64,000 nt of DNA from Nibricoccus sp. (GTDB lineage Bacteria; Verrucomicrobiota; Verrucomicrobiia; Opitutales; Opitutaceae), in assembly GCA_047602425.1 (NCBI GenBank), contig JASGHG010000001.1, forward strand, positions 256,001-320,000, given 5' to 3'. This document shows positions 31,069 to 46,422 of the stretch, piece by piece. Numbering within the stretch: the first letter of the stretch is position 1; the number at the start of each line of letters is the position of its first letter. A program made the translations under genes and the position numbers. The notes under the pieces were generated by a model, which worked only from the letters and a program-made list of their open reading frames with translations, had not been told where the DNA came from and made no database searches.

Positions 31069-31073
31069 TTTTT

Positions 31074-31173
31074 GCCTAGACGTTATAAATCTGCCGCGCC
31101 TGTGACGGACTCGACGGCTGCGCTTGCAGGCGGCGTGACCGGCATAGACGTTGGCAATGGTGCCTGGTTGGGG
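31074..31173 (-). repeat. attC site (degenerate)
   Basis: gcctagac-gttataaatctgccgcgcc...gacgttggcaa-tggtgcctg-gttgggg, same family as other attC but with mutated cores. Confidence 0.75.
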
Positions 31174-31583
31174 CTACTTTTCTTCATCTCCACATTCACA
31201 ATAATTCGTACGCGGCTTCCTGGCCCACACATCTGCCATCTTTTTTCCTCCACCGGGTCATAGCCGGAAGATTCGAACCGTACTTCGCCACCTTGAATAC
31301 CATCTCCCGGCCCAAGCCAAACAAGAACCCATAGCGATGGCTTGGTCGCGACGACCGCAAATCGACCATCCTTATCACTGCGCGTACTGATCACCGGTAC
31401 ACGCCCTCCAGAGCGAAGATAACCACCGAGCAAAATATTTACATTCTGCAAGGGCATCTTCGTATCCGTATCGACAACGGTTCCTTCAAAACGCGGAGAA
31501 ACCCATTTAGTGTGCGGCACAGGCAGCACGATACAGCCACTGAGAAAAAGACACCCAAGAAGCATCGGAACTAGTTTCTTCAT
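31083..31583 (-). CDS. cassette lipoprotein; C-terminus is read through attC
   Basis: LSGC lipobox, GTVVDTDTKMPL carboxypeptidase-regulatory-like motif. Confidence 0.75.
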   Translation of the reverse strand: MKKLVPMLLGCLFLSGCIVLPVPHTKWVSPRFEGTVVDTDTKMPLQNVNILLGGYLRSGGRVPVISTRSDKDGRFAVVATKPSLWVLVWLGPGDGIQGGEVRFESSGYDPVEEKRWQMCGPGSRVRIIVNVEMKKSSPNQAPLPTSMPVTPPASAAVESVTGAADL

Positions 31584-31585
31584 TT

Positions 31586-31680
31586 CTCCTACGTTATAGA
31601 TCTGCCGCGACTACGGCTGGCGCGGCTCCTGCGGAGCAGGAGCCGTGACGGACGTGGTCGCTGGGAGCGTCAGGTTCGCC
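31586..31680 (-). repeat. attC site (degenerate)
   Basis: ctcctac-gttatagatctgccgcgac...gtcgctggg-agcgtcag-gttcgcc. Confidence 0.7.
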
Positions 31681-31996
31681 ATTTTTTCCCGAACGTCGAT
31701 ACGCAAGAATCGACGAGATACCGCGTCAGATAGAAAACGCCAACAATGGTGATCAACTGGACTCCGTAGCCAATGACCTCTAAAATGTACTCATTCGTAA
31801 TGCCCACGCGATTCATCGTAACAACAGCCAAAATCAGAGGGAGCGACAAAACATAGCCGATAGGAACCATCCAATAGATCTGCCACCACGCAGGATGCCA
31901 ATCACGCGGCGCTTTCACCGGCCAAGTACCAGCCTCGACTATGCAAACGAGGCAAAATAGCCCAACTGCGATACCAATCCAGGTCGAGAGTTTCAT
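31670..31996 (-). CDS. cassette membrane protein
   Basis: 108 aa, three hydrophobic segments, ATG 5 nt after GTTCGGC. Confidence 0.72.
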   Translation of the reverse strand: MKLSTWIGIAVGLFCLVCIVEAGTWPVKAPRDWHPAWWQIYWMVPIGYVLSLPLILAVVTMNRVGITNEYILEVIGYGVQLITIVGVFYLTRYLVDSCVSTFGKKWRT

Positions 31997-32001
31997 CTTT
32001 T

Positions 32002-32070
32002 GCCGAACGCTACATAGGGGTTAGTGCCATTCGCGTGACGGACATAGGCGTTGGCAGCGACTGGTTCGGC
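32002..32070 (-). repeat. attC site (shortened, one arm altered)
   Basis: gccgaac...gtgacggacataggcgttggcag..ctg-gttcggc, 69 bp. Confidence 0.7.
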
Positions 32071-32080
32071 TCCATTGTTT

Positions 32081-32606
32081 TCATTTCTGTGTTCGGAACG
32101 GCAAAGCGTCTTCGCTTTTACCAAGACGCTCCAGCTTTTCGACGTAGGAAGGGTAAAGCTTGGCCTTTAGCCATGCGAAGTCCTCTGTCTGAATCAGAGG
32201 CAACGTCTGCCGAAGATACGGCAAGCCGCGCTCTGGCTGATCAAGTTCAAGATAGACCATAGCCAATCCGATATTCCTCTTCTGCGTGAGTAATGCCTGC
32301 TCTCCACTTACCTTCTTTTCGATCTCCAGCGACTCCAAGAGCAGCGGCTCGGACCTCGGCATACTTCTTCAGTCGAATTTTAGCGTTCGCGAGGTTGAAC
32401 AGGCTGCCCGACTTGGCCGCTGGGCCAAGTCGCCCCCAATCGACGTTCTGTGCAGCTCGGGCATATGCGATTTCCGCTTGAACATAGTCGCCACGCTCAA
32501 GGGCGAGATCGCCTGCATCAGTGTAGCGTCCGTATGTCGCGTCGTTCAGCTGATTCGCACAGCCGACCAGAAGGATGAGGAACGTGAGTGAGAATAGCTT
32601 TTTCAT
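32081..32606 (-). pseudogene. cassette TPR lipoprotein, frameshifted
   Basis: ORF 32247-32606 (LVGC lipobox, LFNLANAKIRLKKYAE) continues as SEPLLLESLEIEKK in ORF 32081-32362; one extra base near 32354. Confidence 0.75.
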
Positions 32607-32615
32607 TCTGATTTT

Positions 32616-32702
32616 GCCCAACGTTAAAGATGTGACAACGGCGCGGTGGACATCGCCGAAGGAGTTTGCGTCATAGCCGTTGTCACTAGCGCCTGGTTCG
32701 CC
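32616..32702 (-). repeat. attC site
   Basis: gcccaac...gtgacaacggc / gccgttgtcac...gttcgcc. Confidence 0.88.
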
Positions 32703-32709
32703 TCATTTT

Positions 32710-33147
32710 TCATAGATTGTCTGACGACCAAGTTTCGGGTGCAGTCTTCTTGGTATTTGTTCGGTGGTGATACTTTCCGTCGTAAAAACAAAACTTAACT
32801 TCAGGAAATTCTCCAAACGCCTTCTTATCTTCACTACCGTAGTAAAAGCTAACGCACTTGTATGTCACACCAGCCAGATCACCTGAAGTGAACGTGCTCC
32901 ATGTCATCTTGATCGAGTCCAGCTGTGGGTAATTTATGCCGGCCAAATCTTCTTTCTTCACTTCAACCAGGCCGGCCTCAGTTCGTAAGGCCAGCGACAA
33001 CAACGCCACACGCTCTTTTGTGAGCACTACAGTGCCGCCATCTTCAAACGTGAGCTCCGCGCGCGATACTTTACCGAGTCGATCCCGATGCGCAAATGCG
33101 CTAGCTGCAAAACAGAGTGTGAAAACGATGAGAAATAATTTCTTCAT
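32710..33147 (-). CDS. cassette secreted hypothetical protein
   Basis: MKKLFLIVFTLCFAASAFA signal peptide; ATG directly after GTTCGCC. Confidence 0.78.
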   Translation of the reverse strand: MKKLFLIVFTLCFAASAFAHRDRLGKVSRAELTFEDGGTVVLTKERVALLSLALRTEAGLVEVKKEDLAGINYPQLDSIKMTWSTFTSGDLAGVTYKCVSFYYGSEDKKAFGEFPEVKFCFYDGKYHHRTNTKKTAPETWSSDNL

Positions 33148-33227
33148 GGCGAACGTTCTCTGGTCAGCCACGCCGTACCAGCGGGCAGAGATTAAAAGGA
33201 CGGACGTCATCATAGGCGTTGCGCTGT
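33148..33227 (-). repeat. attC site interrupted by IS110 copy 1 (remainder at 36292-36306)
   Basis: ggcgaac...cagccacgcc...ggcgttgcgctgt | IS | agcgcctg-gttcggc. Confidence 0.88.
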
Positions 33228-33333
33228 ATGCTACTAATAGGCGGATGAGATAACATAAGGAAGCGGCCCCGGCATGGACTGGACGGAGACAAGCACGTAA
33301 CCGGCACTCCTTAGCCGGAGCCGCAATCTAACA

Positions 33334-34599
33334 ATGATAACGAACAAAGCACTTAATGGCAGAACGCACTCCGGGCAACCGGAAACTCGCTGGGATATCG
33401 CCGTCGACGTTGGGCAAAAAGCACTGGACTGGTACGGTGAACTCGGGGCACAGGCGCACCAAGGCCATATCGCCAATCGCAATGAGGCCATCCTCTCATG
33501 GCTGGAACAACTCAACACCCACGCCCGCCAGCACGGCCTTGGCGGCGTGCGCATCCTCTGCGAACCCACCGGCGGATACGAACGGCGCCTGCTGCGCGCG
33601 GCCCGCCAACTCGGCGGCGCCACCGCTCTGGTCAATGGCGAAGCCGTCCACCAGATGCAAGTGGTCGAGAACAACGATACCGGCAAAAGCGACATCAAAG
33701 ATCCCCGCACGATTTTACTATTGGCCAAGTGGAACAAAACCCTGACCGATCGTCCCCTCCAAGGCGAGTGGCTGCTCCTGCGCGAACTCAACGCCCGCTA
33801 CGACCGGCTCGAACGCGACTCCACCCGCTGTAAAAACAGGATTCATAAACTGCTCCTCTCGCTCTTCCCCGAATTGAGCTTTAAAAACGACTGGCTCTTC
33901 GAAGGCCGCGCCGCCCAAGCCACGATCGCACTCTACGGCCTGAACGCCGCCGCGATCCTCGCCGACGGCCTGGAACGCTGCACCGCCAAACTGCGCAACC
34001 ACCACGTTGGCCCAAAGACCATCCAGCGACTCTTTGCCGATGCCCAGCGCTGCGCCCTGATCGACTCCGACCCCGACTGGCTGGCCCTGCTCGCCGAGGA
34101 CCTGCGCGCCCTCTTTGCCGAACTCACCGTGCTGCGCACCCGCCGAACCAACACCCGCCAGCAAATGATCGCCCTGGTCGAACGCCTGCGCGCCCGCGGC
34201 GCCACCCGCCTGCAAGCCCATCCCGACCTGATCAGCCCCTTCATGCTCGCCCGTGTCCTCGCCGAGACCGGACCGCTCCGGGACTTTGCCCACGTGCGCC
34301 AACTCTGGCGCTACGGCGGACTGAACCTGCGGCCCCGCCAAAGCGGCACGATGCAAGGCCAGCTCCGCCAAGCCAAACGCGGCCGCGCCCGCCTGCGCCA
34401 CGTCCTCGCCCAAGCCGTCCTCAAACGCGTCGTGCACGGACAACTCTACGGGCAATACTACCACGCCAAACGCGACACCGGCATGTGCGGCGGCAAAGCC
34501 ATGACCGCGGTCGCCCGCAAGTTCCTCAAACTGCTCCACGGCCTTGAACGCTCGCCCCAACCCTTCGACCCGAAGCGCGTTTTCCGCTCCGCCGCCTAA
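33334..34599 (+). CDS. IS110 family DEDD recombinase/transposase (421 aa)
   Basis: IAVDVGQK, CEPTGGY, KSDIKDP (DEDD); C-terminal GLNLRPRQSG, KRGRARLR, AVARK. Confidence 0.95.
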   Translation: MITNKALNGRTHSGQPETRWDIAVDVGQKALDWYGELGAQAHQGHIANRNEAILSWLEQLNTHARQHGLGGVRILCEPTGGYERRLLRAARQLGGATALVNGEAVHQMQVVENNDTGKSDIKDPRTILLLAKWNKTLTDRPLQGEWLLLRELNARYDRLERDSTRCKNRIHKLLLSLFPELSFKNDWLFEGRAAQATIALYGLNAAAILADGLERCTAKLRNHHVGPKTIQRLFADAQRCALIDSDPDWLALLAEDLRALFAELTVLRTRRTNTRQQMIALVERLRARGATRLQAHPDLISPFMLARVLAETGPLRDFAHVRQLWRYGGLNLRPRQSGTMQGQLRQAKRGRARLRHVLAQAVLKRVVHGQLYGQYYHAKRDTGMCGGKAMTAVARKFLKLLHGLERSPQPFDPKRVFRSAA

Positions 34600-34808
34600 A
34601 CCACTTCCTTGATCTATTTTAGCCGACATTAACTTTTGCTTTTCCGGGAAACCCGCCGCTCGAGGGCCACCAGCCGTTCCGCACAGCCTCGCTGATGCTC
34701 AACTGTATGTTTTAAAGCCCCGACGGCGGGCCTCCCGGTCCTACCGCCCTTTAAGTATCTGGGCTTGCCCCGGAAGGACGGACAAAGATTTGAGGTGGGT
34801 TGTTATGG

Positions 34809-35712
34809 TTAGTGGTGGAGGGATTCGTAGTCGAGCGGGGAGAGGTAACCGAGGGAGCTGTGGAGGCGCTCGCGGTTGTAGAAGCAAATATAGTCGTGCA
34901 GATGGGCGCGCGCTTCTGCGCGGGTGGCGAAGGTGCGTGGATAAACGCATTCGAGTTTGAGGGTGCTCCAGGCCGATTCCATGGCGGCATTATCGTAGCA
35001 GTTGCCGCGGCGGCTCATGCTGGGGATCGCGCCCATCGCGTGAAGCTTCTGGCGGTACGCCTCGCTGGCATACTGGCAGCCGCGGTCGGTGTGGATGATC
35101 AACCCGGCTTTGGGCTGGCGCGAACGGCGCGCCATTTCCAAGGCCGACAGGACCAGTGGCGTGTCGATTTTTTCACTCATGGCCCAGCCGACCAGCCGGC
35201 GGCTGCATGCATCTTTGAAGGCGCATAAATACAGCCAGCCTTCGCCGGTTCCGATGTAGGTCAGATCGCTCCGCCAAACGTGATCGAGCGCGGTGACCGC
35301 AGGCTTTCCCAAGAGGAGATTCGGGGCGATCGGACCGGGATGGTTGCTGTCGGTGGTTTTGACTTTGTACCGCCGGCGGGGCCGGGCGCTTTGGCGTTGT
35401 TGTTTCATCAGCCGGGCGATGCGTTTGCGGCTGGGTGTGGGCTGGCCCGGGCATCGCAAGACTTGCTGGATACGCGGCGCTCCGTAGGTGCCCCGGCTCC
35501 GCAGGTACGCGGCGGTGATTTTCGGGGATAGTTCCGCATCCGCCAATGTTCGCGGACCCGGATGAGTCTGCCGGTGGCAATACGCGTGGTACCCGCTGGT
35601 GCTCACGCCAAAGGCCGCGCACAGATCGGCGATCGTGTGGTGGGTCTTCATCGCAGTTATCCTTTCGTACCGCTCGGCGGGGGTTCGGAGAGGATGCCCA
35701 AGGTTTTTTTTA
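34809..35712 (-). CDS. IS3 transposase OrfB (DDE integrase core)
   Basis: YGAPRI, WRSDLTYI, HTDRGCQY, GNCYDNAAMES, YNRERLHSSLGYLSP; joined to OrfA through an A8 run at 35704-35711. Confidence 0.92.
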
Positions 35713-36007
35713 ATATGTCGCGCTGGGTGCGCAGGCGCTCGTTCTCCTGACGGAGCGCTCGCAACTCCGCTTGCAACGAACCGATGTCGGCCGGCGTTTG
35801 CGCGCCGCCCCCATGGGGGCGTTCCTCCGTGCGGATCCACGCATACAGGGTCGTCTCGTGGACCCCGATCTTCGGCGCATACTTCGGCACGCTTTCCCCG
35901 CTCAGCCGCCACGCCGCCACGCTGTCGCGGCGAAACGCCTCGTCATACTCAGGCACGTATTTGCGGGGCGGCGGGGCCGCCTCGTTCTTGGTCTCGGGTT
36001 TGTTCAT
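35657..36007 (-). CDS. IS3 transposase OrfA (HTH)
   Basis: YDEAFRRDSV, IGVHETTLYAW, LRQENERLRTQRDILKK. Confidence 0.9.
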   Translation of the reverse strand: MNKPETKNEAAPPPRKYVPEYDEAFRRDSVAAWRLSGESVPKYAPKIGVHETTLYAWIRTEERPHGGGAQTPADIGSLQAELRALRQENERLRTQRDILKKTLGILSEPPPSGTKG

Positions 36008-36310
36008 GGACTTATTCTTTCTTCGTAGGCCCTCTTCTTTGTCCACGTTTTCGGGGTAAGCTTAATCGTCCGGGCCAGCCCGCAAAAGCTGGACCAACTC
36101 ATGGGGATCGTCGCGGAGGACCGGGCTCCTGGCCAAAGCGCCAAAACCATATCCATCTCATGTAACCAAAATACCTGCTACATCCTACCCCCGGGGCTCG
36201 TCCTCCGACGAGCTGGAGGCCCATTCTCGGACTCGCCCCTCTCCCCCCTGACTGCAAAATCAAACTTACCCCTTGATTTTACCTAAAGGGGAGCGCCTGG
36301 TTCGGCTCTT

Positions 36311-36685
36311 TCATGCTTTGATTTCTTCAGGCATAGATTTCTTACCAATACGGTGAGCCGCTATCCAAAAAGGAATCATAACAGGCAAAGACCAGATCCC
36401 GATAACGAAGAAGAGAATGCCGCTTTGAGCATCGGGATGCCAATAGAACCCGTCGAGATAGATGAAAAGAAACCAAACAGCGTAAAGGGATGTGCTCAGT
36501 GCGATCACTCTTTGTACCTTCCGGGCTTCTTTCCATCGCAAAGCAATCTGTAGAGAATAAACAAGGGGGCCTAACGCAAAGGGCACTGCCAACAGACCGG
36601 CATAAAAGGGCTCTGCCACGACGCAGAGTACTAGCGCGCCCAAGGCCAGAAAGAGTGCCGTCGTGCTAACGCCGATATTCTTCAT
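36311..36685 (-). CDS. cassette membrane protein
   Basis: 124 aa, four hydrophobic segments, bounded by GTTCGGC / GCCGAAC. Confidence 0.78.
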   Translation of the reverse strand: MKNIGVSTTALFLALGALVLCVVAEPFYAGLLAVPFALGPLVYSLQIALRWKEARKVQRVIALSTSLYAVWFLFIYLDGFYWHPDAQSGILFFVIGIWSLPVMIPFWIAAHRIGKKSMPEEIKA

Positions 36686-36691
36686 ATCTTT

Positions 36692-36790
36692 GCCGAACGT
36701 TAAAGGTGAGCCACGCCTGTGCTCGGCGCGACAGCTGCCACGCAGCTGGCGTGACGAGCATAGGCGTTGTGCTCTAGCGCCTGGTTCGGC
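36692..36790 (-). repeat. attC site
   Basis: gccgaac...gagccacgcc / ggcgttgtgctc...gttcggc. Confidence 0.92.
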
Positions 36791-36793
36791 TCT

Positions 36794-37099
36794 TTAGATT
36801 CTACGAGGATCAACATATTTAGCTCCCTGCTGCTTCAAGAGCCGCCAAAGCTTCCGGACAAGTCTGCCATCCGAGATCCAGAACACGAAAAAGCTAAAGA
36901 AACCTCGGTGCGGAAAAAGAACGATGAAATGAACTTCTGCATCACCGTCCTCCGTATAGTCGCAAACCTGAGCTCGTGCGGCACCAGACTGAACCAGTAA
37001 CGACCGACCAGACTGCTCGACGCTATAACCAGCGGTGCGAAGGCACACTTCAATCGCCTCGAACTTCTGACTGGGAAACGTGTAAATCGGGAAGGCCAT
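36794..37099 (-). CDS. cassette hypothetical protein
   Basis: MAFPIYTF..., ATG 6 nt after GTTAGGC. Confidence 0.65.
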   Translation of the reverse strand: MAFPIYTFPSQKFEAIEVCLRTAGYSVEQSGRSLLVQSGAARAQVCDYTEDGDAEVHFIVLFPHRGFFSFFVFWISDGRLVRKLWRLLKQQGAKYVDPRRI

Positions 37100-37105
37100 A
37101 CTTTT

Positions 37106-37182
37106 GCCTAACGATCTCTGGTCAGCCATGCCGAGCTGGCGACTCCAAACTCAAAGCGAACCCCGTCGAGGCATTGCGCTGT
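37106..37182 (-). repeat. attC site interrupted by IS110 copy 2 (remainder at 38939-38953)
   Basis: gcctaac...cagccatgcc...ggcattgcgctgt | IS | agcgcctg-gttaggc. Confidence 0.86.
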
Positions 37183-37287
37183 ATGCTACTAATAGGCGGA
37201 TGAGGTAACATAAGGGGCGGCCCCGGCACGGACTAGACGGTGACAAGCACGTAACCGGCACTCCTTAGCCGGAGCCGCAATCTAACA

Positions 37288-38553
37288 ATGATAACGAACA
37301 AAGCACTTAATGGCAGAACGCACTCCGGGCAACCGGAAACTCGCTGGGATATCGCCGTCGACGTCGGGCAAAAAGCACTGGACTGGTACGGTGAACTCGG
37401 GGCCCAGGCGCACCAAGGCCATATCGCCAATCGCAATGAGGCCATCCTCTCATGGCTGGAACAACTCAACACCCACGCCCGCCAGCACGGCCTTGGCGGC
37501 GTGCGCATCCTCTGCGAACCCACCGGCGGATACGAACGGCGCCTGCTGCGCGCGGCCCGCCAACTCGGCTGCGCCACCGCTCTGGTCAACGGCGAAGCCG
37601 TCCACCAGATGCAAGTGGTCGAGAACAACGATACCGGCAAAAGCGACATCAAAGATCCCCGCACGATTTTACTATTGGCCAAGTGGAACAAAACCCTGAC
37701 CGATCGTCCCCTCCAAGGCGAGTGGCTGCTCCTGCGCGAACTCAACGCCCGCTACGACCGGCTCGAACGCGACTCCACCCGCTGTAAAAACAGGATTCAT
37801 AAACTGCTCCTCTCGCTCTTCCCCGAATTGAGCTTTAAAAACGACTGGCTCTTCGAAGGCCGCGCCGCCCAAGCCACGATCGCACTCTACGGCCTGAACG
37901 CCGCCGCGATCCTCGCCGACGGCCTGGAACGCTGCACCGCCAAACTGCGCAACCACCACGTTGGCCCAAAGACCATCCAGCGACTCTTTGCCGATGCCCA
38001 GCGCTGCGCCCTGATCGACTCCGACCCCGACTGGCTGGCCCTGCTCGCCGAGGACCTGCGCGCCCTCTTTGCCGAACTCACCGTGCTGCGCACCCGCCGA
38101 ACCAACACCCGCCAGCAAATGATCGCCCTGGTCGAACGCCTGCGCGCCCGCGGCGCCACCCGCCTGCAAGCCCATCCCGACCTGATCAGCCCCTTCATGC
38201 TCGCCCGTGTCCTCGCCGAGACCGGACCGCTCCGGGACTTTGCCCACGTGCGCCAACTCTGGCGCTACGGCGGGCTCAACCTGCGGCCCCGCCAAAGCGG
38301 CACCATGCAAGGCCAGCTCCGCCAAGCCAAACGCGGCCGCGCCCGCCTGCGCCACGTCCTCGCCCAAGCCGTCCTCAAACGCGTCGTGCACGGACAACTC
38401 TACGGGCAATACTACCACGCCAAACGCGACACCGGCATGTGCGGCGGCAAAGCCATGACCGCGGTCGCCCGCAAGTTCCTCAAACTGCTCCACGGCCTTG
38501 AACGCTCGCCCCAACCCTTCGACCCGAAGCGCGTTTTCCGCTCCGCCGCCTAA
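37288..38553 (+). CDS. IS110 family recombinase/transposase
   Basis: Near-identical to 33334-34599 (G to C change in RQLG[G/C]AT). Confidence 0.95.
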   Translation: MITNKALNGRTHSGQPETRWDIAVDVGQKALDWYGELGAQAHQGHIANRNEAILSWLEQLNTHARQHGLGGVRILCEPTGGYERRLLRAARQLGCATALVNGEAVHQMQVVENNDTGKSDIKDPRTILLLAKWNKTLTDRPLQGEWLLLRELNARYDRLERDSTRCKNRIHKLLLSLFPELSFKNDWLFEGRAAQATIALYGLNAAAILADGLERCTAKLRNHHVGPKTIQRLFADAQRCALIDSDPDWLALLAEDLRALFAELTVLRTRRTNTRQQMIALVERLRARGATRLQAHPDLISPFMLARVLAETGPLRDFAHVRQLWRYGGLNLRPRQSGTMQGQLRQAKRGRARLRHVLAQAVLKRVVHGQLYGQYYHAKRDTGMCGGKAMTAVARKFLKLLHGLERSPQPFDPKRVFRSAA

Positions 38554-38938
38554 ACCACTTCCTTGATCTATTTTAGCCGACATTAACTTTTGCTTTTCCG
38601 GGAAACCCGCCGCTCGAGGGCCACCAGCCGTTCCGCACAGCCTCGCTGATGCTCAACTGTATGTTTTAAAGCCCCGACGGCGGGCCTCCCGGTCTTACCG
38701 CCCTTTAAGTATCGTCCGGGCCAGCCCGCAAAAGCTGGACCAACTCATGGGGATCGTCGCGGAGGACCGGGCTCCTGGTTAAAGCGCCAAAACCATATCC
38801 ATCTCATGTAACCAAAACCACCTGCTACATCCTGCCCCCGGGGCTCGTCCTCCGACGAGCTGGAGGCCCATTCTCGGACTCGCCCCTCTCCCCCCTGACT
38901 GCAAAATCAAACTTACCCCTTGATTTTACCTAAAGGGG
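38554..38938 (+). ncRNA. candidate bridge/seek RNA region of IS110 copy 2
   Basis: 385 bp conserved non-coding segment after the recombinase with hairpins and short matches to attC target and to the circle junction; RNA ends unknown. Confidence 0.62.
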
Positions 38939-38947
38939 AGCGCCTGG

Positions 38948-39235
38948 TTAGGCTTCTTCTTTATTCTTATTCGCCTCCTGCTCGGTTTTAGAATCGCTAC
39001 AATGATTCAAGCCGCGCCCATCGATCATCATTTTCACACCTGCTACGCAAAAGATAGCAGCAACTATTAACGGGTGCCAACCTATGGTGTTATATGTCAA
39101 CCATGCTAAATCACGGCTAGGTCCAGAATACCATTTTGTGAACGTAGACATGCCTTCAACCATCGCAAAGAAATGAACCGCATAGAGAAATACTCCCAGC
39201 GATATGAATCCAAAACCGAGCTTCGTTTTATTCAT
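38948..39235 (-). CDS. cassette membrane protein (duplicate of 39825-40112)
   Basis: 95 aa, two TMs, identical protein. Confidence 0.8.
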   Translation of the reverse strand: MNKTKLGFGFISLGVFLYAVHFFAMVEGMSTFTKWYSGPSRDLAWLTYNTIGWHPLIVAAIFCVAGVKMMIDGRGLNHCSDSKTEQEANKNKEEA

Positions 39236-39246
39236 AGATAATTTTA

Positions 39247-39345
39247 GCCTAACGTTATAGATCTGCCGCGCCTGTGGCCGGCGCGACCGGTGCGTCAGCA
39301 GCGGGCGTGACGGACATAGGCGTTGGCAGTAGCGCCTGGTTGGGC
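39247..39345 (-). repeat. attC site
   Basis: gcctaac...ctgccgcgcc / ggcgttggcag...gttgggc. Confidence 0.92.
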
Positions 39346-39352
39346 TCTTTCT

Positions 39353-39718
39353 TTAGTCCCACCATAGATAGAGAAACCTGCCTTCAATGATGGGCAGCGG
39401 CTCTTTGCTCAAGTCGTAGCCTTCCAGAGTGGCTTCTTCGCGATAGATTGCCGCCAGCTCTTCCGATACACCTGCATCCGACAGCTCGATCACTAGCGAG
39501 TCGGAATAAGGTCCACCTAACTCAACGACCTCTTCTTCGTCTGCGATAATAGCGTCCTGAGGTACAAATACACGCTTCGCGCCAATGGCATACAGATGCT
39601 CAACGAAAGCTGCTGCTTCAGACGTGGACGGGAAACGATTCGATGCGAGCGCAGCTTCGTGGCCGTTCAGGCGCAACCACTCCAGAGCCTCGGGTCCGTC
39701 TTCAAATTGTATCTTCAT
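39353..39718 (-). CDS. cassette acidic hypothetical protein ending LWWD
   Basis: 121 aa ORF filling the cassette. Confidence 0.78.
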   Translation of the reverse strand: MKIQFEDGPEALEWLRLNGHEAALASNRFPSTSEAAAFVEHLYAIGAKRVFVPQDAIIADEEEVVELGGPYSDSLVIELSDAGVSEELAAIYREEATLEGYDLSKEPLPIIEGRFLYLWWD

Positions 39719-39731
39719 GGGGACGCCTTTT

Positions 39732-39830
39732 GCCCAACGTTAAAGGTGAGCCACGCCTGTGCTCGGCGCGACGGGTGCGCAGCAGCCGGCGTGACGAGCA
39801 TAGGCGTTGTGCTCTAGCGCCTGGTTAGGC
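39732..39830 (-). repeat. attC site
   Basis: gcccaac...gagccacgcc / ggcgttgtgctc...gttaggc. Confidence 0.92.
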
Positions 39831-40112
39831 TTCTTCTTTATTCTTATTCGCCTCCTGCTCGGTTTTAGAATCGCTACAATGATTCAAGCCGCGCCCATCG
39901 ATCATCATTTTCACACCTGCTACGCAAAAGATAGCAGCAACTATTAACGGGTGCCAACCTATGGTGTTATATGTCAACCATGCTAAATCACGGCTAGGTC
40001 CAGAATACCATTTTGTGAACGTAGACATGCCTTCAACCATCGCAAAGAAATGAACCGCATAGAGAAATACTCCCAGCGATATGAATCCAAAACCGAGCTT
40101 CGTTTTATTCAT
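39825..40112 (-). CDS. cassette membrane protein (duplicate of 38948-39235)
   Basis: 95 aa; stop codon lies in the R'' core. Confidence 0.8.
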   Translation of the reverse strand: MNKTKLGFGFISLGVFLYAVHFFAMVEGMSTFTKWYSGPSRDLAWLTYNTIGWHPLIVAAIFCVAGVKMMIDGRGLNHCSDSKTEQEANKNKEEA

Positions 40113-40123
40113 AGATAATTTTA

Positions 40124-40210
40124 GCCTAACGTCAGAGGCCAGACAACGGCGCCGGCGGGACTGCCGAAGCGGGACGCGTCATAGCCGTTGTCTGTGGCGG
40201 CTGGATATGC
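40124..40210 (-). repeat. attC site with atypical R'' (GCATATC)
   Basis: gcctaac...cagacaacggc / gccgttgtctg...gatatgc. Confidence 0.82.
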
Positions 40211-40451
40211 CGCGTTCTCGCAAAATCACCTCCGCATACAAGCTCGGCCGCAACGCGTGCGCACACTCCGAAGTCGTCCGGCGTCGCCTCACTGGCAAAC
40301 CTCCGCACTCTAACCTTTCTTTCTTCGCTCCGCACGCCGGCAGCTCTATCGGCAAGTTCTACCTCCGACAACCTCTCGCCTACTCTAAATTCTTTCGCAC
40401 GCACGCTCATCGTTTGATTTACCAGCATCATCGCAGCTCGATTTGCATATC
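40204..40451. other. probable non-coding cassette with GAT/ATC cores
   Basis: Bounded by gatatgc and gcatatc; C/T-rich plus strand; no ORF that both starts and ends inside it. Confidence 0.6.
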
Positions 40452-40543
40452 GTTACAGGTGAGCCACGGCTATGGCCGGCGCGACGCGTGCCACGCACGC
40501 GGCGTGACGGACATAGACGTTGCGCTCTAGCGGCTGGTTGGGC
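40445..40543 (-). repeat. attC site with atypical R' (GATATGC)
   Basis: gcatatc-gttacaggtgagccacgg...acgttgcgctctagcggctg-gttgggc. Confidence 0.82.
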
Positions 40544-40553
40544 TCCGTCGTTT

Positions 40554-40763
40554 TCATTTTTTCTTTTTCCCTCGGCGACTCACTGGCTTCAGCTTGTTCT
40601 TCTTTTTTGAAACGCTCGCCGCCAGTTTCGATGCGAGATACCCAACCACGTATTCTTTCTTCGTTTGGAGGATAAAGTCTCGATTGCTTTCAAGATCACC
40701 GATCGCTCGCGACAAAATCCGCCATGTTTTCGTGGCTCGGTATTCGGAATACGGGGACGTCAT
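40554..40763 (-). CDS. cassette small basic protein
   Basis: MTSPYSEY...KKKK, 69 aa, ATG 5 nt after GTTGGGC. Confidence 0.68.
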   Translation of the reverse strand: MTSPYSEYRATKTWRILSRAIGDLESNRDFILQTKKEYVVGYLASKLAASVSKKKNKLKPVSRRGKKKK

Positions 40764-40768
40764 CTTTT

Positions 40769-40867
40769 GCCCAACGTTATAGGTCAGCCACGCCTGTGCT
40801 CGGCGCGACGGCTGCTCCGCAGCCGGCGTGACGAGCATAGGCGTTGTGCTGTAGCGCCTGGTTAGGC
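40769..40867 (-). repeat. attC site
   Basis: gcccaac...cagccacgcc / ggcgttgtgctg...gttaggc. Confidence 0.92.
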
Positions 40868-41227
40868 ATCTTTGTATTTTGTTACAAGTCGGTAATCAGA
40901 TAAAACTACCGCAATTGCCTTCTCGCTAACGTAGCCGTCTTCGCCGACCTCGTCATGATAAATACGATAAAGCGGACCTCCTTCACCGTCGGCCACACGG
41001 ATAAAATAAGGGTCTCCAGTACCAATACTGCAACCACCGACAGGAATATAACCGTCCTTATTTACAGCAATACCCGGATACAATTCTTCTGACTCTACGC
41101 GTGAGCCTTCTTCATCAAGCCATTCGATTACCGCACCAACACCAGATAAATCTTCGGCCACGGGTATTTCGATTTCCGTACCGATCAAATTATTATCTTG
41201 GGCAAATTTCTTCCAATACGGTGTCAT
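40862..41227 (-). CDS. cassette protein, SMI1/KNR4 (SUKH)-like by eye
   Basis: YIPVGGCSIGTGDPYFI...GPLYRIYHD pattern. Confidence 0.6.
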   Translation of the reverse strand: MTPYWKKFAQDNNLIGTEIEIPVAEDLSGVGAVIEWLDEEGSRVESEELYPGIAVNKDGYIPVGGCSIGTGDPYFIRVADGEGGPLYRIYHDEVGEDGYVSEKAIAVVLSDYRLVTKYKDA

Positions 41228-41237
41228 ACTTTTTTCT

Positions 41238-41336
41238 GCCTAACGTTATAGATCTGCCGCGAGCGTGTCCGGCACGGAATGTGCGCAAGCATAGTCCGTG
41301 ACGGATATGCTCGTTGGCAGTAGCGCCTAGTTCGGC
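41238..41336 (-). repeat. attC site
   Basis: gcctaac...ctgccgcgagc / gctcgttggcag...gttcggc. Confidence 0.9.
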
Positions 41337-41337
41337 T

Positions 41338-41835
41338 TCATTTTCTTGCTTTGAACTCTTCTTTGAGCACAGAAATGAACAGCATCTCCGGCGAGACTCG
41401 GTTTTGAGGGTAGCGTACACGATAATAGATCTCTACTCGTCGCGCATCCATCGGCACTGCGTACTCTTCTATCGCCATATGCCCCGTCAGCTTATCGAGC
41501 GACTTTAATGTCCATATTTGCGATACAGGCACTTGATAGATCATCGTCTCCGTCAACACTGGTTCGTAATACTCCAGCCCCGGCTCAATATCCGAACCGC
41601 GAACCGGCATCGACGTGACAGATACACCATCCACGTAAACGGCGCTGATCTGGAGTCCAACGACAGGACTAAGGTAATAACTAGCGGACCGACCTGCCGG
41701 TAGAGCAAAAACCTCATTCCGTAGATCGGAGAAATGCGTCGTGACAAAGCGGATCTGCTCCGTCGCCTTAGGCTCACCCTGCGCCACAACTGCAGCGTAG
41801 AGAAATACAATAACGATTGTCGCTAGGTGTTTCAT
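41338..41835 (-). CDS. cassette secreted hypothetical protein
   Basis: MKHLATIVIVFLYAAVVA signal peptide; ATG 5 nt after core. Confidence 0.75.
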   Translation of the reverse strand: MKHLATIVIVFLYAAVVAQGEPKATEQIRFVTTHFSDLRNEVFALPAGRSASYYLSPVVGLQISAVYVDGVSVTSMPVRGSDIEPGLEYYEPVLTETMIYQVPVSQIWTLKSLDKLTGHMAIEEYAVPMDARRVEIYYRVRYPQNRVSPEMLFISVLKEEFKARK

Positions 41836-41840
41836 ATTTT

Positions 41841-41940
41841 GCCGAACGTTCAAGATCAGCCACGACCGCAGATGGCGCGGGTCGTGCGCCAGCACGAACC
41901 GTGACAGCTGTGGTCGTTGTGCTGTGGCGCCTTGTTCGAT
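41841..41940 (-). repeat. attC site
   Basis: gccgaac...cagccacgacc / ggtcgttgtgctg...gttcgat. Confidence 0.88.
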
Positions 41941-41955
41941 CGGTTTGCTCTCTGA

Positions 41956-42285
41956 CTAGAGCAGGTCATGCGTAGTAAAGGGATCACGACCGATCGACGC
42001 TGAGTGAACTCTGAAATGGGCGCGTAAAATCGCTTCGACCTGCGAATTTTCGAGCGCCTGGTGCTGAACGGCATCGAGCAGAATACCTGAATCGTCGTTT
42101 CCGATCTTCTCTTGGGAGTCGTCACACTGACAGCAGCCGTAGCCGTCGAAAGAGATTCTGACCAAGCCAACCCGCCCTCCTTGATCAACGTCGAAATCAG
42201 CAAACACGCTGTCGTCCTGTAGGGCCAAGCAGAACTTGCATGGCCTTGTCGGCATCGTAGGCGCTACTCGTATGGAAAGGGCCAT
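41956..42285 (-). CDS. cassette hypothetical protein (CxxC, ISFDGYGCC)
   Basis: 109 aa ORF filling the cassette. Confidence 0.7.
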   Translation of the reverse strand: MALSIRVAPTMPTRPCKFCLALQDDSVFADFDVDQGGRVGLVRISFDGYGCCQCDDSQEKIGNDDSGILLDAVQHQALENSQVEAILRAHFRVHSASIGRDPFTTHDLL

Positions 42286-42293
42286 GGGTCTGT

Positions 42294-42392
42294 GCCGAAC
42301 GTCAACGGTGAGCCACGCCTGTGCTCGGCGCGACGGCTGCCCCGCAGCTGGCGTGACGAGCATAGGCGTTGTGCTCTAGCGCCTTGTTCGGC
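42294..42392 (-). repeat. attC site
   Basis: gccgaac...gagccacgcc / ggcgttgtgctc...gttcggc. Confidence 0.92.
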
Positions 42393-42396
42393 TGTT

Positions 42397-42837
42397 TTAT
42401 GGAGCGAATGTATAAGGCGGAGGACACAACTGAATCGTAGAATCGATATATGTCTTAACTATCTTAAAAGTCTTTTTGTCTTCCCTTTCGCATGAAAAAA
42501 CAGCCCACCCTTTTGAACTATCCAAAGTCCGTAATTCAAATATACCAGAATCCGGATCCTTCGTGACAAACAGCCATCGCCCCGCCCCTAAAGAAAAGCT
42601 ATCGCACTTAGAAAACTTGGTGCCAACATCGATTGCACTTATTTCAAGATCCTCGATCTTTTGGGTTTTCGTTATGCTTTCTTTCAGGAAAACGTGGAGA
42701 GCCCGAAAATCGTATCGTGAAGCAACGCTTCGCTGCCACTTTTTGCTAGCTCTTTTTAATTCGCTGCGGGATTCAGGGGTAAGTACTACAAAACCGCAGC
42801 TCAAGAACGCCAAGAGTAAAAGTAAAACTGGTTTCAT
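42397..42837 (-). CDS. cassette exported/lipoprotein hypothetical
   Basis: MKPVLLLLLAFLSC N-terminus. Confidence 0.75.
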   Translation of the reverse strand: MKPVLLLLLAFLSCGFVVLTPESRSELKRASKKWQRSVASRYDFRALHVFLKESITKTQKIEDLEISAIDVGTKFSKCDSFSLGAGRWLFVTKDPDSGIFELRTLDSSKGWAVFSCEREDKKTFKIVKTYIDSTIQLCPPPYTFAP

Positions 42838-42841
42838 ATTT

Positions 42842-42939
42842 GCCGAACGTTAAAGATGTGCCGCGCCTATGGCTGGCGCGCCTCCTGCCCCGCAGGAGGC
42901 GTGACGGACATAGGCGTTGGCACTAGCGCCTGGTTCGCC
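42842..42939 (-). repeat. attC site
   Basis: gccgaac...gtgccgcgcc / ggcgttggcac...gttcgcc. Confidence 0.92.
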
Positions 42940-43370
42940 CTAATAAACCAGCGTGCTAAAGAGATTATAGCTACAAGCAAAGGCCCCCCGAACGTCCACA
43001 AGCTAATAAAGTCTATCTGTTTTACCGACGACAAAAAGGAAATCGAAACAGCACATCCTGAAATCAAGAGAATGGTCAAAATCAGTCTAAGCAATCTATG
43101 CTTCTTCGCTCGTGCACTAGTGATAAAGATCGAAGTAAAAACAGCGATTATGCTAAAGGGCGATAAAACCAAAACCGGGAAAAGTAGCACGCCAGAGACT
43201 GACCAACCGTGCAATCCGTCGTATGTGGAAGGAGCAAATACACTGACCGGGAAAAGCCACGAAAACGGAAAATATATCAGGATGGGGAAGCAAAGCGTCA
43301 GCTGGGCCATCGGCGATACAACCTCCATCGCAACACGGAAACCTCGGCCAAAGTTAATGCGTGTTTCCAT
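42867..43370 (-). CDS. cassette membrane protein; C-terminus read through attC
   Basis: METRINFG start 3 nt after core; four TMs; ends NQALVPTPMSVTPPAGQEARQP. Confidence 0.7.
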   Translation of the reverse strand: METRINFGRGFRVAMEVVSPMAQLTLCFPILIYFPFSWLFPVSVFAPSTYDGLHGWSVSGVLLFPVLVLSPFSIIAVFTSIFITSARAKKHRLLRLILTILLISGCAVSISFLSSVKQIDFISLWTFGGPLLVAIISLARWFIRANQALVPTPMSVTPPAGQEARQP

Positions 43371-43373
43371 TCT

Positions 43374-43472
43374 GGCGAACGTTATAGGTGAGCCACGCCT
43401 GTGACCGGCGCGACGTGTGCCCCGCACACGGCGTGACGGACACAGGCGTTGTGCTCTAGCGCCTGGTTAGGC
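43374..43472 (-). repeat. attC site
   Basis: ggcgaac...gagccacgcc / ggcgttgtgctc...gttaggc. Confidence 0.92.
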
Positions 43473-43742
43473 CGTCTTCTTTTTGTCCCTGATTCCATCG
43501 AGATGTACTTTCCTGGCCTCGGCCTTTCGGGTTCGTTCAGCCACTCGACACTTGCGGCACCTTACCGCCTTCGTCTCGAACAGCCCTCCAGCAACTTCAT
43601 ACCACCATTTCTGCTGGCTAGCTTTCCAGACCTCAGCCTTCCCGCAATCCTTACAAACAAACGATTGGTCTTCGTAATAATCGGGAATCCACGGGCCTGC
43701 CATCGACTCCATCGATCGAATTTTTTCTGGATCGACTGGCAC
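43467..43742 (-). CDS. cassette zinc-ribbon domain protein (possible 5' frameshift)
   Basis: YYEDQSFVCKDCG..W....QKWWYE...RCRKCR; the cassette-proximal ATG at 43795 is out of frame. Confidence 0.75.
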   Translation of the reverse strand: MPVDPEKIRSMESMAGPWIPDYYEDQSFVCKDCGKAEVWKASQQKWWYEVAGGLFETKAVRCRKCRVAERTRKAEARKVHLDGIRDKKKTA

Positions 43743-43806
43743 GCGCTCTTCGGCGTCGGTTTAGCCGATTTGGTGTGCTTGCGGCCAAGGCTCATTTTCT
43801 GATTTT

Positions 43807-43885
43807 GCCTAACGTTTGAGGTCAGCCACGCCGTACTGGCGGGCAAAGATTAAAAGGACGGACGCGATCATAGGCGTTGCGCTGT
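43807..43885 (-). repeat. attC site interrupted by IS110 copy 3 (remainder at 45643-45657)
   Basis: gcctaac...cagccacgcc...ggcgttgcgctgt | IS | agcggctg-gttcggc. Confidence 0.88.
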
Positions 43886-43990
43886 ATGCTACTAATAGGC
43901 GGATGAGGTAACATAAGGGGCGGCCCCGGCACGGACTAGACGGTGACAAGCACGTAACCGGCACTCCTTAGCCGGAGCCGCAATCTAACC

Positions 43991-45256
43991 ATGATAACGA
44001 ACAAAGCACTTAATGGCAGAACGCACTCCGGGCAACCGGAAACTCGCTGGGATATCGCCGTCGACGTTGGGCAAAAAGCACTGGACTGGTACGGTGAACT
44101 CGGGGCCCAGGCGCACCAAGGCCATATCGCCAATCGCAATGAGGCCATCCTCTCATGGCTGGAACAACTCAACACCCACGCCCGCCAGCACGGCCTTGGC
44201 GGCGTGCGCATCCTCTGCGAACCCACCGGCGGATACGAACGGCGCCTGCTGCGCGCGGCCCGCCAACTCGGCTGCGCCACCGCCTTGGTCAACGGCGAAG
44301 CCGTCCACCAGATGCAAGTGGTCGAGAACAACGATACCGGCAAAAGCGACATCAAAGATCCCCGCACGATTTTACTATTGGCCAAATGGAACAAAACCCT
44401 GACCGATCGTCCCCTCCAAGGCGAGTGGCTGCTCCTGCGCGAACTCAACGCCCGCTACGACCGGCTCGAACGCGACTCCACCCGCTGTAAAAACAGGATT
44501 CATAAACTGCTCCTCTCGCTCTTCCCCGAATTGAGCTTTAAAAACGACTGGCTCTTCGAAGGCCGCGCCGCCCAAGCCACGATCGCACTCTACGGCCTGA
44601 ACGCCGCCGCGATCCTCGCCGACGGCCTGGAACGCTGCACCGCCAAACTGCGCAACCACCACGTTGGCCCAAAGACCATCCAGCGACTCTTCGCCGACGC
44701 CCAGCGCTGCGCCCTGATCGACTCCGACCCCGACTGGCTGGCCCTGCTCGCCGAGGACCTGCGCGCCCTCTTTGCCGAACTCACCGTGCTGCGCACCCGC
44801 CGAACCAACACCCGCCAGCAAATGATCGCCCTGGTCGAACGCCTGCGCGCCCGCGGCGCCACCCGCCTGCAAGCCCATCCCGACCTGATCAGCCCCTTCA
44901 TGCTCGCCCGTGTCCTCGCCGAGACCGGACCGCTCCGGGACTTTGCCCACGTGCGCCAACTCTGGCGCTACGGCGGGCTCAACCTGCGGCCCCGCCAAAG
45001 CGGCACCATGCAAGGCCAACTCCGCCAAGCCAAACGCGGCCGCGCCCGCCTGCGCCACGTCCTCGCCCAAGCCGTCCTCAAACGCGTCGTGCACGGACAA
45101 CTCTACGGGCAATACTACCACGCCAAACGCGACACCGGCATGTGCGGCGGCAAAGCCATGACCGCGGTCGCCCGCAAGTTCCTCAAACTGCTCCACGGCC
45201 TTGAACGCTCGCCCCAACCCTTCGACCCGAAGCGCGTTTTCCGCTCCGCCGCCTAA
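43991..45256 (+). CDS. IS110 family recombinase/transposase
   Basis: Protein identical to copy 2. Confidence 0.95.
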   Translation: MITNKALNGRTHSGQPETRWDIAVDVGQKALDWYGELGAQAHQGHIANRNEAILSWLEQLNTHARQHGLGGVRILCEPTGGYERRLLRAARQLGCATALVNGEAVHQMQVVENNDTGKSDIKDPRTILLLAKWNKTLTDRPLQGEWLLLRELNARYDRLERDSTRCKNRIHKLLLSLFPELSFKNDWLFEGRAAQATIALYGLNAAAILADGLERCTAKLRNHHVGPKTIQRLFADAQRCALIDSDPDWLALLAEDLRALFAELTVLRTRRTNTRQQMIALVERLRARGATRLQAHPDLISPFMLARVLAETGPLRDFAHVRQLWRYGGLNLRPRQSGTMQGQLRQAKRGRARLRHVLAQAVLKRVVHGQLYGQYYHAKRDTGMCGGKAMTAVARKFLKLLHGLERSPQPFDPKRVFRSAA

Positions 45257-45642
45257 ACCACTTCCTTGATCTATTTTAGCCGACATTAACTTTTGCTTTT
45301 CCGGGAAACCCGCCGCTTGAGGGCCACCAGCCGTTCCGCACAGCCTCGCTGATGCTCAACTGTATGTTTTAAAGCCCCGACGGCGGGCCTCCCGGTCTTA
45401 CCGCCCTTTAAGTATCGTCCGGGCCAGCCCTCAAAAGCTGGACCAACTCATGGGGATCGTCGCGGAGGACCGGGCTCCTGGTTAAAGCGCCAAAACCATA
45501 TCCATCTCATGTAACCAAAACCACCTGCTACATCCTGCCCCCCGGGGCTCGTCCTCCGACGAGCTGGAGGCCCATTCTCGGACTCGCCCCTCTCCCCCCT
45601 GACGGCAAAATCAAACTTACCCCTTGATTTTACCTAAAGGGG
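45257..45642 (+). ncRNA. candidate bridge/seek RNA region of IS110 copy 3
   Basis: Near-identical to 38554-38938. Confidence 0.6.
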
Positions 45643-45951
45643 AGCGGCTGGTTCGGCTCCGTCTTGCTTCTCAAAAGGCTCAATGTGGCAATAGGGATAA
45701 GCTTCAGTCGCCGCGAAATACTTCTTGGTGAGCGATTCTTTAACGTCTGATAAGTGACGGATTTCTTCATGCTCACCGAGCACTACTATCTTCACTTTAA
45801 AATGGGTGGCGTATTCTTTCAGGGTGGCTTTCGCACCTTCTACTGACTCGTCACAGGTGTATCCAAGCGCATACGACATGATCCGCTCTTTTGTACGCTG
45901 TGGATGCCCGGGCAGCAGCTCTACGGACAATTGAAAGATCCTAAATTTCAT
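45634..45951 (-). CDS. cassette hypothetical protein; stop codon supplied by IS110 end
   Basis: ATG 4 nt after GTTCGGC; reads through R'' into the IS. Confidence 0.68.
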   Translation of the reverse strand: MKFRIFQLSVELLPGHPQRTKERIMSYALGYTCDESVEGAKATLKEYATHFKVKIVVLGEHEEIRHLSDVKESLTKKYFAATEAYPYCHIEPFEKQDGAEPAAPL

Positions 45952-45955
45952 TTTT

Positions 45956-46054
45956 GCCGAACGTTATAGGTGAGCCACGGCTATGTCCGGCGTGACTCGT
46001 GCCACGCACGAGGCATGACGGACATGGACGTTGTGCTCTAGCGCCTGGTTGGGC
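45956..46054 (-). repeat. attC site
   Basis: gccgaac...gagccacgg / acgttgtgctc...gttgggc. Confidence 0.9.
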
Positions 46055-46067
46055 GGTTTTCCAATCA

Positions 46068-46418
46068 TTAGAAAATCCTCGTTTCTCCCTTTCCTGTCCC
46101 TGCGTCGTGGTGCACCACAAAGTCGACTTTCTTCGACATCGAAAACTCAAGCATCTGCTGAAATAGTCCCTGTGCTTCCGCTGGCGGTACGTACAGGCAG
46201 CGCAAATCGATCTTAACTCTATCAGACGGCTTGAGCCCGTTCTGCGCTGCGATTCCGCCCTTAAGAATAAAAGTCATATATGCTGAAAACTTCTTCTCTA
46301 AATCGGCCATGATCGCGTCGATTTCGCTCCACTCACGCGACTCGAGCATGATCAATACTACCGTACCGTCGTGGTCCTGACCGAGAATATCAACCGAGGT
46401 ATGATCTTGTGTGGTCAT
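46068..46418 (-). CDS. cassette hypothetical protein (DUF6572-like by eye)
   Basis: VDI...VVLIMLESREW...LEKKFSAYMTFILKG. Confidence 0.7.
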   Translation of the reverse strand: MTTQDHTSVDILGQDHDGTVVLIMLESREWSEIDAIMADLEKKFSAYMTFILKGGIAAQNGLKPSDRVKIDLRCLYVPPAEAQGLFQQMLEFSMSKKVDFVVHHDAGTGKGETRIF

Positions 46419-46422
46419 CTTT

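Follow-up and report, generated by a model that had tools for sequence, protein, structure and literature searches.

A candidate two-loop guide RNA at the right end of an IS110-family element inserted in integron attC sites of Nibricoccus sp.

The insertion sequence and its attC sites

The window analysed here, a stretch of 64,000 nucleotides from the genome of Nibricoccus sp. (Verrucomicrobiota; contig JASGHG010000001.1, positions 256,001 to 320,000 of the forward strand), contains three copies of an insertion sequence that is present nine times in the whole genome. Copy 2, on which our description is based, carries a transposase gene with 105 nt of non-coding DNA upstream and 385 nt downstream (38554-38938), and it interrupts an attC site. 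The main features are the following:

33228..36291, + strand: copy 1, with module 2 of its RNA region split by a 1,305-bp IS3-like element
37109..37182, + strand: left part of the interrupted attC, from GCCTAAC (37109-15) to ...GCGCTGT
37183..38938, + strand: insertion sequence copy 2, 1,756 bp, delimited from the three-copy alignment and from the nine genome copies with their flanks
37203..37217, + strand: left sub-terminal inverted repeat AGGTAACATAAGGGG, from a local alignment of the left end and the reverse-complemented right end
37288..38553, + strand: gene for an IS110-family DEDD transposase of 421 aa (PF01548, PF02371)
38916..38931, + strand: right sub-terminal inverted repeat CCCCTTGATTTTACCT, containing a -35-like hexamer, TTGATT
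38939..38953, + strand: right half of the attC target, AGCGCCTG-GTTAGGC, which on the cassette (-) strand is the R'' box GCCTAAC plus 8 nt
43886..45642, + strand: copy 3, with an intact RNA region (45292-45478)

The transposase scores above the cut-offs of two Pfam domains, with 58.6 bits (E 8e-16) for PF01548 (DEDD_Tnp_IS110, N-terminal) and 52 bits (E 9.7e-14) for PF02371 (Transposase_20, C-terminal). Against the NCBIfam equivalog NF033542 ("IS110 family RNA-guided transposase") it reaches 110.5 bits, below the cut-off of 140, and by this score it is at best a divergent member of the IS110 family. Residues D25, E77, D120, D123, S337 and G338 are invariant among 26 homologues, and the SG motif aligns with the SG of ISCro4; the six residues are putatively catalytic. 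Homologous transposases are 402-507 aa long. The similarity to IS621 and ISCro4 extends over the C-terminal domain only, at an E of about 1e-5, and among 72,556 plasmids the best long transposase matches listed are about 24-27.5% identical.

Comparison of the nine copies with empty attC sites gives the element the sequence ATGCTACTAATAGG...CCTAAAGGGG, with one ambiguous A and without target duplication. The first A of copy 2 (37183) is interchangeable with the A at 38939, and it is the single base common to target and donor. We also considered a 4-base GCGC duplication as the core and rejected it, since copy 3 and the empty attC sites are inconsistent with GCGC. The sub-terminal inverted repeats match at 14 of 16 positions with one gap in a local alignment whose score was equalled by 12 of 1,000 shuffles, and a comparable repeat is present in relatives. 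Inspection by eye further picked out a candidate circle-junction promoter, in which TTGATT (38920-38925) would lie about 17-19 nt from a -10-like TACTAA (37187-37192). The -35-like hexamer is TTGACT in many relatives, and a junction promoter is likewise possible at five loci (L030, L038, L022, L026 and L029), with TTGACT or TTGATT at the right end and TACTAT or TACTAA at the left end.

According to the original prediction, which was made by eye from the sequence of the window, the downstream region is conserved in all three copies. The region is indeed kept in each of them, but in copy 1 its second module is interrupted. The intruding IS3-like element (34760-36064, 1,305 bp) carries its ORFs (rve, HTH_Tnp_1) on the - strand, ends in imperfect inverted repeats and is flanked by a 3-bp ATC duplication. 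Because this insertion splits the 5' donor-guide strand described below, an intact guide RNA is probably not made from copy 1.

All nine genome copies lie at the same attC position, ...CTGT^AGCGSCTGGTT. Their left flanks read ...GCGCTGT in seven cases, GGCAGT in one and GCGCTCT in one, and their right flanks read AGCGCCTGGTT in five and AGCGGCTGGTT in four, while the unoccupied attC sites of the window read ...GYGCTSTAGCGSCTGGTTNGGC. The small ORFs between the attC sites are all on the - strand, and GTTAGGC occupies positions 38947-53; in cassette orientation, the R'' box GCCTAAC is followed after 8 nt by the element, which runs antisense to the cassettes in all nine copies. The right half AGCGSCTGGTTNRGY (AGCGSCTGGTT) occurs at 25 sites of the genome. 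Occupancy of these sites differs with the left flank (7 of 10 sites with CTGT, against 2 of 15 with other left flanks; Fisher p 0.009, a test weakened by the non-independence of the nine copies, two of which have an identical left flank), and the base at +4, C or G, has no effect on occupancy across the 25 sites. The two copies in question, at genome positions 293,187 (copy 2 of the window) and 922,557, share the same 110-nt left flank and differ in their right flanks, which suggests either recombination between copies or a cassette that moved together with the element.

Across the family, GTT begins at +8 (A-N7-GTT), as in the attC core, in 24 of the 26 right flanks that could be placed, and an R''-like box with at most two mismatches accompanies the elements of 8 of 13 relatives, as judged by a looser attC test that was used in place of a strict RYYYAAC test by which most sites were overlooked.

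A search of the genome with the TIGR02249 profile found integron integrases over the cut-off at G000:C1 5,147,048-5,147,989 and 919,184-920,107, both beside element-carrying arrays, and none next to the array of the window (31,000-46,500). The latter array ends near a tRNA gene (48258-48329, - strand) and looks like an integrase-less attC cluster. Two 300-nt stretches of it (38939-39238 and 39816-40115) are 100% identical: the cassette with a 95-aa ORF that directly follows copy 2 recurs 877 nt on, a cassette duplication within the array.

Structure of the downstream non-coding region

Two modules, each made of a stem, an internal loop and a hairpin, are seen both in the fold of the window sequence and in the fold of four close sequences. 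Their parts, all on the + strand, are as follows:

38606..38684: module 1, putatively target-binding, from the folds and family covariation
38606-12/38678-84: module 1, helix
38618-21/38671-74: module 1, helix
38622-34: module 1, 5' loop strand
38635-41/38645-52: module 1, hairpin GCACAGC/GCTGATGC
38653-70: module 1, 3' loop strand
38691..38768: module 2, putatively donor-binding, from the folds and family covariation
38691-701/38759-68: module 2, helix
38702-20: module 2, 5' loop strand
38721-25/38734-38: module 2, hairpin ccagc/gctgg
38739-58: module 2, 3' loop strand

The original prediction had singled out the motifs accagccgtt (38623-32), ctgta (38657-61), taagtatcgtc (38706-16) and ggggat (38749-54) as guides, together with the hairpin ccagc/gctgg (38721-38) and a hairpin in module 1 at 38635-52. 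All of these are found where it placed them, and its four guides turn out to be the four loop strands.

Taken singly, the window sequence folds little better than its shuffles (z -1.84, with 2 of 100 shuffles as good), and the case for the structure comes from comparison. Transposase relatives were gathered as 185 protein clusters at E <= 1e-20 among 8,000 scored, as 77 loci from species-representative genomes and as three useful metagenome loci (80% identity; single-protein scan); within the same order, a search of 401 genomes found the transposase in only two genomes besides Nibricoccus sp. A covariance model built on four close sequences (R1) gave 14 matches and was superseded by a model built on those matches (R2), which gave 60 matches in 80 sources, all on the transposase strand and nearly all directly downstream of the gene. 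In the R2 alignment of 51 distinct rows, 95.8% of cells pair, as against 65.3% in shuffles and 27-44% after a shift of the partners by 1-3 columns, and both sides have changed in 32 of 33 pairs; these counts lean towards the structure, because the alignment (A4) was fitted to the covariance model. RNAalifold, applied to the same alignment, retained four helices out of five and showed compensatory changes in 29 of 31 pairs. The helix it lost is the module-2 hairpin, for which the model-fitted count is the sole support, whereas the helix-4 stem of module 2 has covariation support equal to that of module 1. All four guide strands are unpaired in this consensus, rather than buried in stems. Furthermore, G.U cells (82 of 1,558) make pairing drop on the opposite strand, to 90.5% from 95.8%, which favours an RNA of the transposase sense.

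At gathering score, Rfam recognised only a tRNA in the window, and its two matches within 38500-39000 are at chance level. A scan of the + strand found neither a sigma-70-like promoter ahead of the RNA nor a terminator-like site near it, although such a scan is not informative for this phylum.

Some of the related loci depart from the common arrangement. L019 (2297-2920) and L025 (1407-2337) each have two RNA-model matches downstream of a single transposase gene; the two matches in L019 are identical and 409 nt apart, and in both loci the doubling may represent a tandem duplication of the guide RNA region. In addition, a full RNA is present in L038, on a contig of a MAG labelled as a Halobacteriota archaeon. 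As all other hosts are bacterial, mis-binning is possible in this case.

Correspondence between the loop strands and DNA

Each of the four loop strands contains a stretch that corresponds to the DNA at the boundaries of the element:

38624..38632, + strand: right-target guide CCAGCCGUU, complementary to the + strand target A-GCGGCTGG (38939-47)
38657..38663, + strand: left-target guide CUGUAUG, of the same sense as the left flank CTGT (37179-82), the shared A and the TG of the left end
38708..38715, + strand: donor 5' guide AGUAUCGU, complementary to left-end bases 1-8, ATGCTACT (37183-90)
38749..38754, + strand: donor 3' guide GGGGAU, of the same sense as the last four right-end bases (38935-38), the shared A and one further base

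These assignments retain the substance of the original prediction while changing the limits of three of its guides. The first guide of module 1 does match the right target and is now confined to the nine-mer at 38624-32; ctgta matches the left flank as claimed and is extended to 38657-63, taking in two bases of the element; and the 5' guide of module 2 is donor-matching, although it is better read at 38708-15 against element bases 1-8. The covariance modelling that the prediction had proposed as a check found the structure in relatives, with guides that covary with their flanks, targets and termini across homologues.

For the right-target guide, the reverse complement of loop positions 3-11 was sought in the 400 nt downstream of the RNA of each element. 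Identity at nine of nine positions was found in the element's own downstream DNA in 9 of 44 cases, compared with 10 of 1,892 cross-pairings; for at least eight of nine the counts are 14 of 44 and 145 of 1,892, and for at least seven of nine they are 37 of 44 and 815 of 1,892. The remaining 7 of the 44 elements reach only six of nine, no better than cross-pairings. The match also keeps a fixed register: the best one starts at the first base past the element, 7-11 nt after the conserved YTAARR end motif, in 26 of 45 elements, as against 105 of 1,800 shuffled guides (5.8%). The matched nine-mers are diverse across lineages (AGCGAATTG, AACGACGGG, ATGTGATTG, ATTAGTTTG, AGCGCCGGG and ACCGCCTTG), and a compensatory change is seen between the window, where the guide has CCAG and the target CTGG, and L012/L094, where the guide has CAAG and the target CTTG.

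The duplex is not uniform along its length. Counted over 26 elements, positions 0 to +8 are matched in 24, 20, 25, 23, 15, 22, 24, 25 and 26 cases, respectively, which makes +4 the loosest guide position, and the window's own sites also vary there (C or G). In the window, position +1 of the right-target duplex is a U.G wobble. Five of the nine own sites have C at +4, and in these a C.C mismatch falls in the middle of the 9-bp duplex.

The left-target guide covers the shared A together with about four bases of flank and two or three of the element. For the window's own guide, the higher occupancy of genomic sites with a CTGT left flank is further support. An eight-mer taken from the 3' strand matches its own element at eight of eight positions in 10 of 41 cases (24 of 1,640 in cross-pairings) and at seven or more in 31 of 41 (350 of 1,640), and the match adjoins the left-end motif. 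The guides differ between elements in the following way:

Window: CTGT-ATG
L020: CTGT-AGG
L033: CTGC-ATC
L012: CTCG-ATAA
Many Desulfobacterota: CTGC-ACA

One relative, in an Opitutaceae MAG (L083, 2501-3100), is reduced to the last 57 transposase codons, the RNA and the right end, and it has target guides (CCAACAGUU and CUGGAUG) that differ from those of the window and match neither its own right flank nor the attC consensus; this locus is either a remnant in decay or a copy that has been retargeted.

Module 2 follows the termini of the element, which vary among relatives between GGGG, GATG, AAAG and AGAC at the right end and between TACT, AAGCT and TGCT at the left. Compared with its own element, the donor 5' strand contains left-end bases 2-7 as a reverse complement in 13 of 19 cases; in cross-pairings it does so in 0 of 204. 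The duplex of the window is itself imperfect, with six Watson-Crick pairs, one G.U and one mismatch among eight positions, and close relatives are likewise inexact. The donor 3' strand contains the element's own last four right-end bases plus A in 16 of 26 elements, against 35 of 546 comparisons with differently ended elements, and the exact five-mer is missing in the other 10 of 26. The one to four bases that follow the A in this strand fit the left end in Verrucomicrobiota and the right flank in other lineages. In IS621, handshake dinucleotides are reported to pair either before or after strand exchange (PMC13626964), and by analogy such pairing may cover both patterns.

An unbiased search for ungapped duplexes between the non-coding tail (about 385-387 nt) and the target or donor returned several other matches of 6-11 nt. 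Three of these, CCTGGTTA (38774-81), AGCGCC (38783-88) and CTGCTACA (38822-29), were tried as guides and rejected, as they lie outside the conserved structure and are lost in 80%-identical relatives. The motifs of the original prediction are weak when taken alone as well; they rise above chance because they stand in four unpaired strands of a covarying structure and track flanks and termini across homologues.

A proposed guide RNA, its alternatives and its known relatives

The original prediction of an IS110-type RNA-guided recombinase programmed against attC is supported by the covarying structure and by the co-variation of guides with DNA, and a two-loop guide RNA that directs the recombinase into integron attC is very probably produced from the non-coding tail. 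More precisely, we consider it highly likely that the right end of this IS110-family element, whose layout is of the IS1111 type, encodes a bridge RNA or seekRNA of about 165 nt that guides the recombinase to attC. In the mechanism we propose, module 1 would read attC, with its 5' strand pairing with the top strand of the right half over the stretch that starts at the shared A and stops at the G of the GTTRRRY core, and its 3' strand pairing with the bottom strand of the left target half. Module 2 would read the donor, namely the junction at which the two ends meet in an excised circle: its 5' strand would pair with the first eight left-end bases, and its 3' strand would have the sense of the last four right-end bases and the A. 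The one shared A, equivalent to a core, would be covered by all four strands. The RNA-bound recombinase would then synapse the circle junction with attC and exchange strands at T^A, a recombination that would leave 8 nt between the element and the R'' box, with the element antisense to the cassettes. By analogy with published work on relatives, we expect transcription of the region, binding of the resulting RNA to the transposase, a circle intermediate and strand-exchange chemistry like that of those systems. Specifically, a seekRNA encoded downstream of tnp is described as co-purifying with IS1111 transposases and as being essential and reprogrammable (PMC11187229), and for 93% of IS1111 elements a bridge RNA has been predicted at the right end (PMC11208160). 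Counting against this reading are the imperfect pairings described above, at +4 and in the donor 5' guide of the window, the elements whose right-target guide does no better than cross-pairings, and the weak fold of the single sequence.

It is conceivable that module 1 alone is the guide, as a short seekRNA, and that module 2 is a structural or protein-binding scaffold, the transposase reading the ends through the sub-terminal inverted repeats. Such repeats are present, an 82-nt seekRNA is reported to have sufficed for the movement of ISEc11 (PMC11187229), the module-2 5' strand of the window matches the left end imperfectly, and the 3' strand lacks the exact right-end five-mer in the 10 elements mentioned above. 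We nevertheless regard this explanation as unlikely, since each strand of module 2 tracks a terminus of its own element, the 3' strand in 16 of 26 cases (cross-comparisons: 35 of 546) and the 5' strand in 13 of 19 (0 of 204), and since the helix-4 stem of module 2, if not its hairpin, which appears in the model-fitted count only, covaries as well as module 1.

Two further explanations dispense with a guide RNA altogether, and we consider both very improbable. attC sites recombine as folded single strands, and the region could itself work as folded single-stranded DNA, like the sub-terminal guide hairpins of IS200/IS605; that the targets are attC sites and that no sigma-70-like promoter was found ahead of the RNA in the + strand scan would be in keeping with this. 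However, the 82 G.U cells fall in helices on the sense strand only, the two loop strands match opposite strands of a duplex target, and the transposase is a DEDD/Ser enzyme of the IS110 family, for which RNA guides are reported to have been shown experimentally (PMC11187229, PMC11208160). The region might instead be a structured 3' UTR, a terminator or a regulatory element of the transposase gene, its complementarity arising by coincidence or as a by-product of end and target sequences. Short matches of similar length do arise by chance elsewhere in the non-coding region, and the z-score of the single-sequence fold is weak; yet the guide strands change along with the flanks across elements while the stems are retained, the matches stand in a fixed register at the element boundary, and the + strand scan found no terminator-like site. 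A guide RNA with two reading loops remains the explanation we prefer.

The principle of the guide and its class of target are already published, for ISKpn4, ISPst6 and ISPa25, and the element described here is a new, distant and phylum-spanning member rather than a new mechanism. The seekRNAs of these three attC-targeting IS1111 elements have been reported, two of them from experiments (PMC11187229; Siddiquee et al. 2024). As in those elements, a non-coding RNA lies downstream of tnp and the target is attC; as in IS1111 seekRNAs generally, according to the published description, the strand matching the top strand of the target is 5' of the bottom-strand match (PMC11187229). With the IS1111 group our element shares a longer non-coding region downstream of tnp and inverted repeats within the 7-17 bp class. 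An IS1111-attC group was reportedly the subject of work by Tetu and Holmes in 2008; like its members, our element is without target duplication and has sub-terminal inverted repeats. Insertion close to the attC 5' end, in antisense orientation relative to the cassettes, is described for that group (PMC3001079) and holds for our element too. Differences concern the enzyme, which has 421 aa, in contrast to the 330-350 aa given for IS1111 enzymes (PMC11187229), and the hosts, which belong to Verrucomicrobiota and further environmental phyla and whose arrays are sedentary. Group IIC-attC introns are also mobile and are described as inserting near the 5' end of attC, antisense to cassettes (PMC3001079). 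Unlike these ribozyme/reverse-transcriptase retroelements, the element encodes a DEDD recombinase and has no intron or RT signature.

The core of IS621 is a CT dinucleotide, whereas the core shared by target and donor in our element is apparently a single A. The RNA of IS621 is located in the left end, ours in the right end, and the order of strands within the loop is reversed. The likenesses to the bridge RNA of IS621 and the IS110 group are nonetheless extensive: a target loop is combined with a donor loop, as described for those systems (Durrant et al. 2024, PMC11208160; Nature 2026, PMC13626964), every loop engages both strands of its DNA to the left and right of a common core, the programmable donor bases have sub-terminal repeats to either side, and the bases beyond the core resemble the reported handshake guides (PMC13626964).

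Related elements have hosts in Verrucomicrobiota, Desulfobacterota, Nitrospirota, Latescibacterota, Bacteroidota and other phyla. It is an evenly balanced question, in our judgement, whether they form a separate, phylum-spanning clade of RNA-guided insertion sequences with transposases of about 420 aa, distinct from the gammaproteobacterial IS1111-attC group and specialised on the attC sites of sedentary integrons, whose 9-nt guide was repeatedly retuned for each host lineage and always ends on the G of GTTRRRY. No separate clade of this sort appears among the papers listed in literature searches on seekRNA and IS1111, on IS1111-attC, or on bridge RNA at attC. If true, these elements would form a series of naturally reprogrammed guides sharing a one-base core, and they would be a recurrent parasite or modulator of chromosomal cassette arrays. 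An attC site whose R'' box is separated from the remainder by 1.75 kb of inserted DNA should be disabled for cassette excision.

While the known mechanism is unchanged by our findings, they contribute a natural and well-supported case of RNA-guided recombination in environmental phyla that have received little study. More than two dozen elements in which guide and target can be read side by side give access to the pairing needs at each position, with positions 0-3 and 5-8 matched in 20-26 of 26 elements and +4 in only 15. Chromosomal integron arrays outside Proteobacteria have attC-seeking insertion sequences of their own, in complete integrons as well as in integrase-less arrays.
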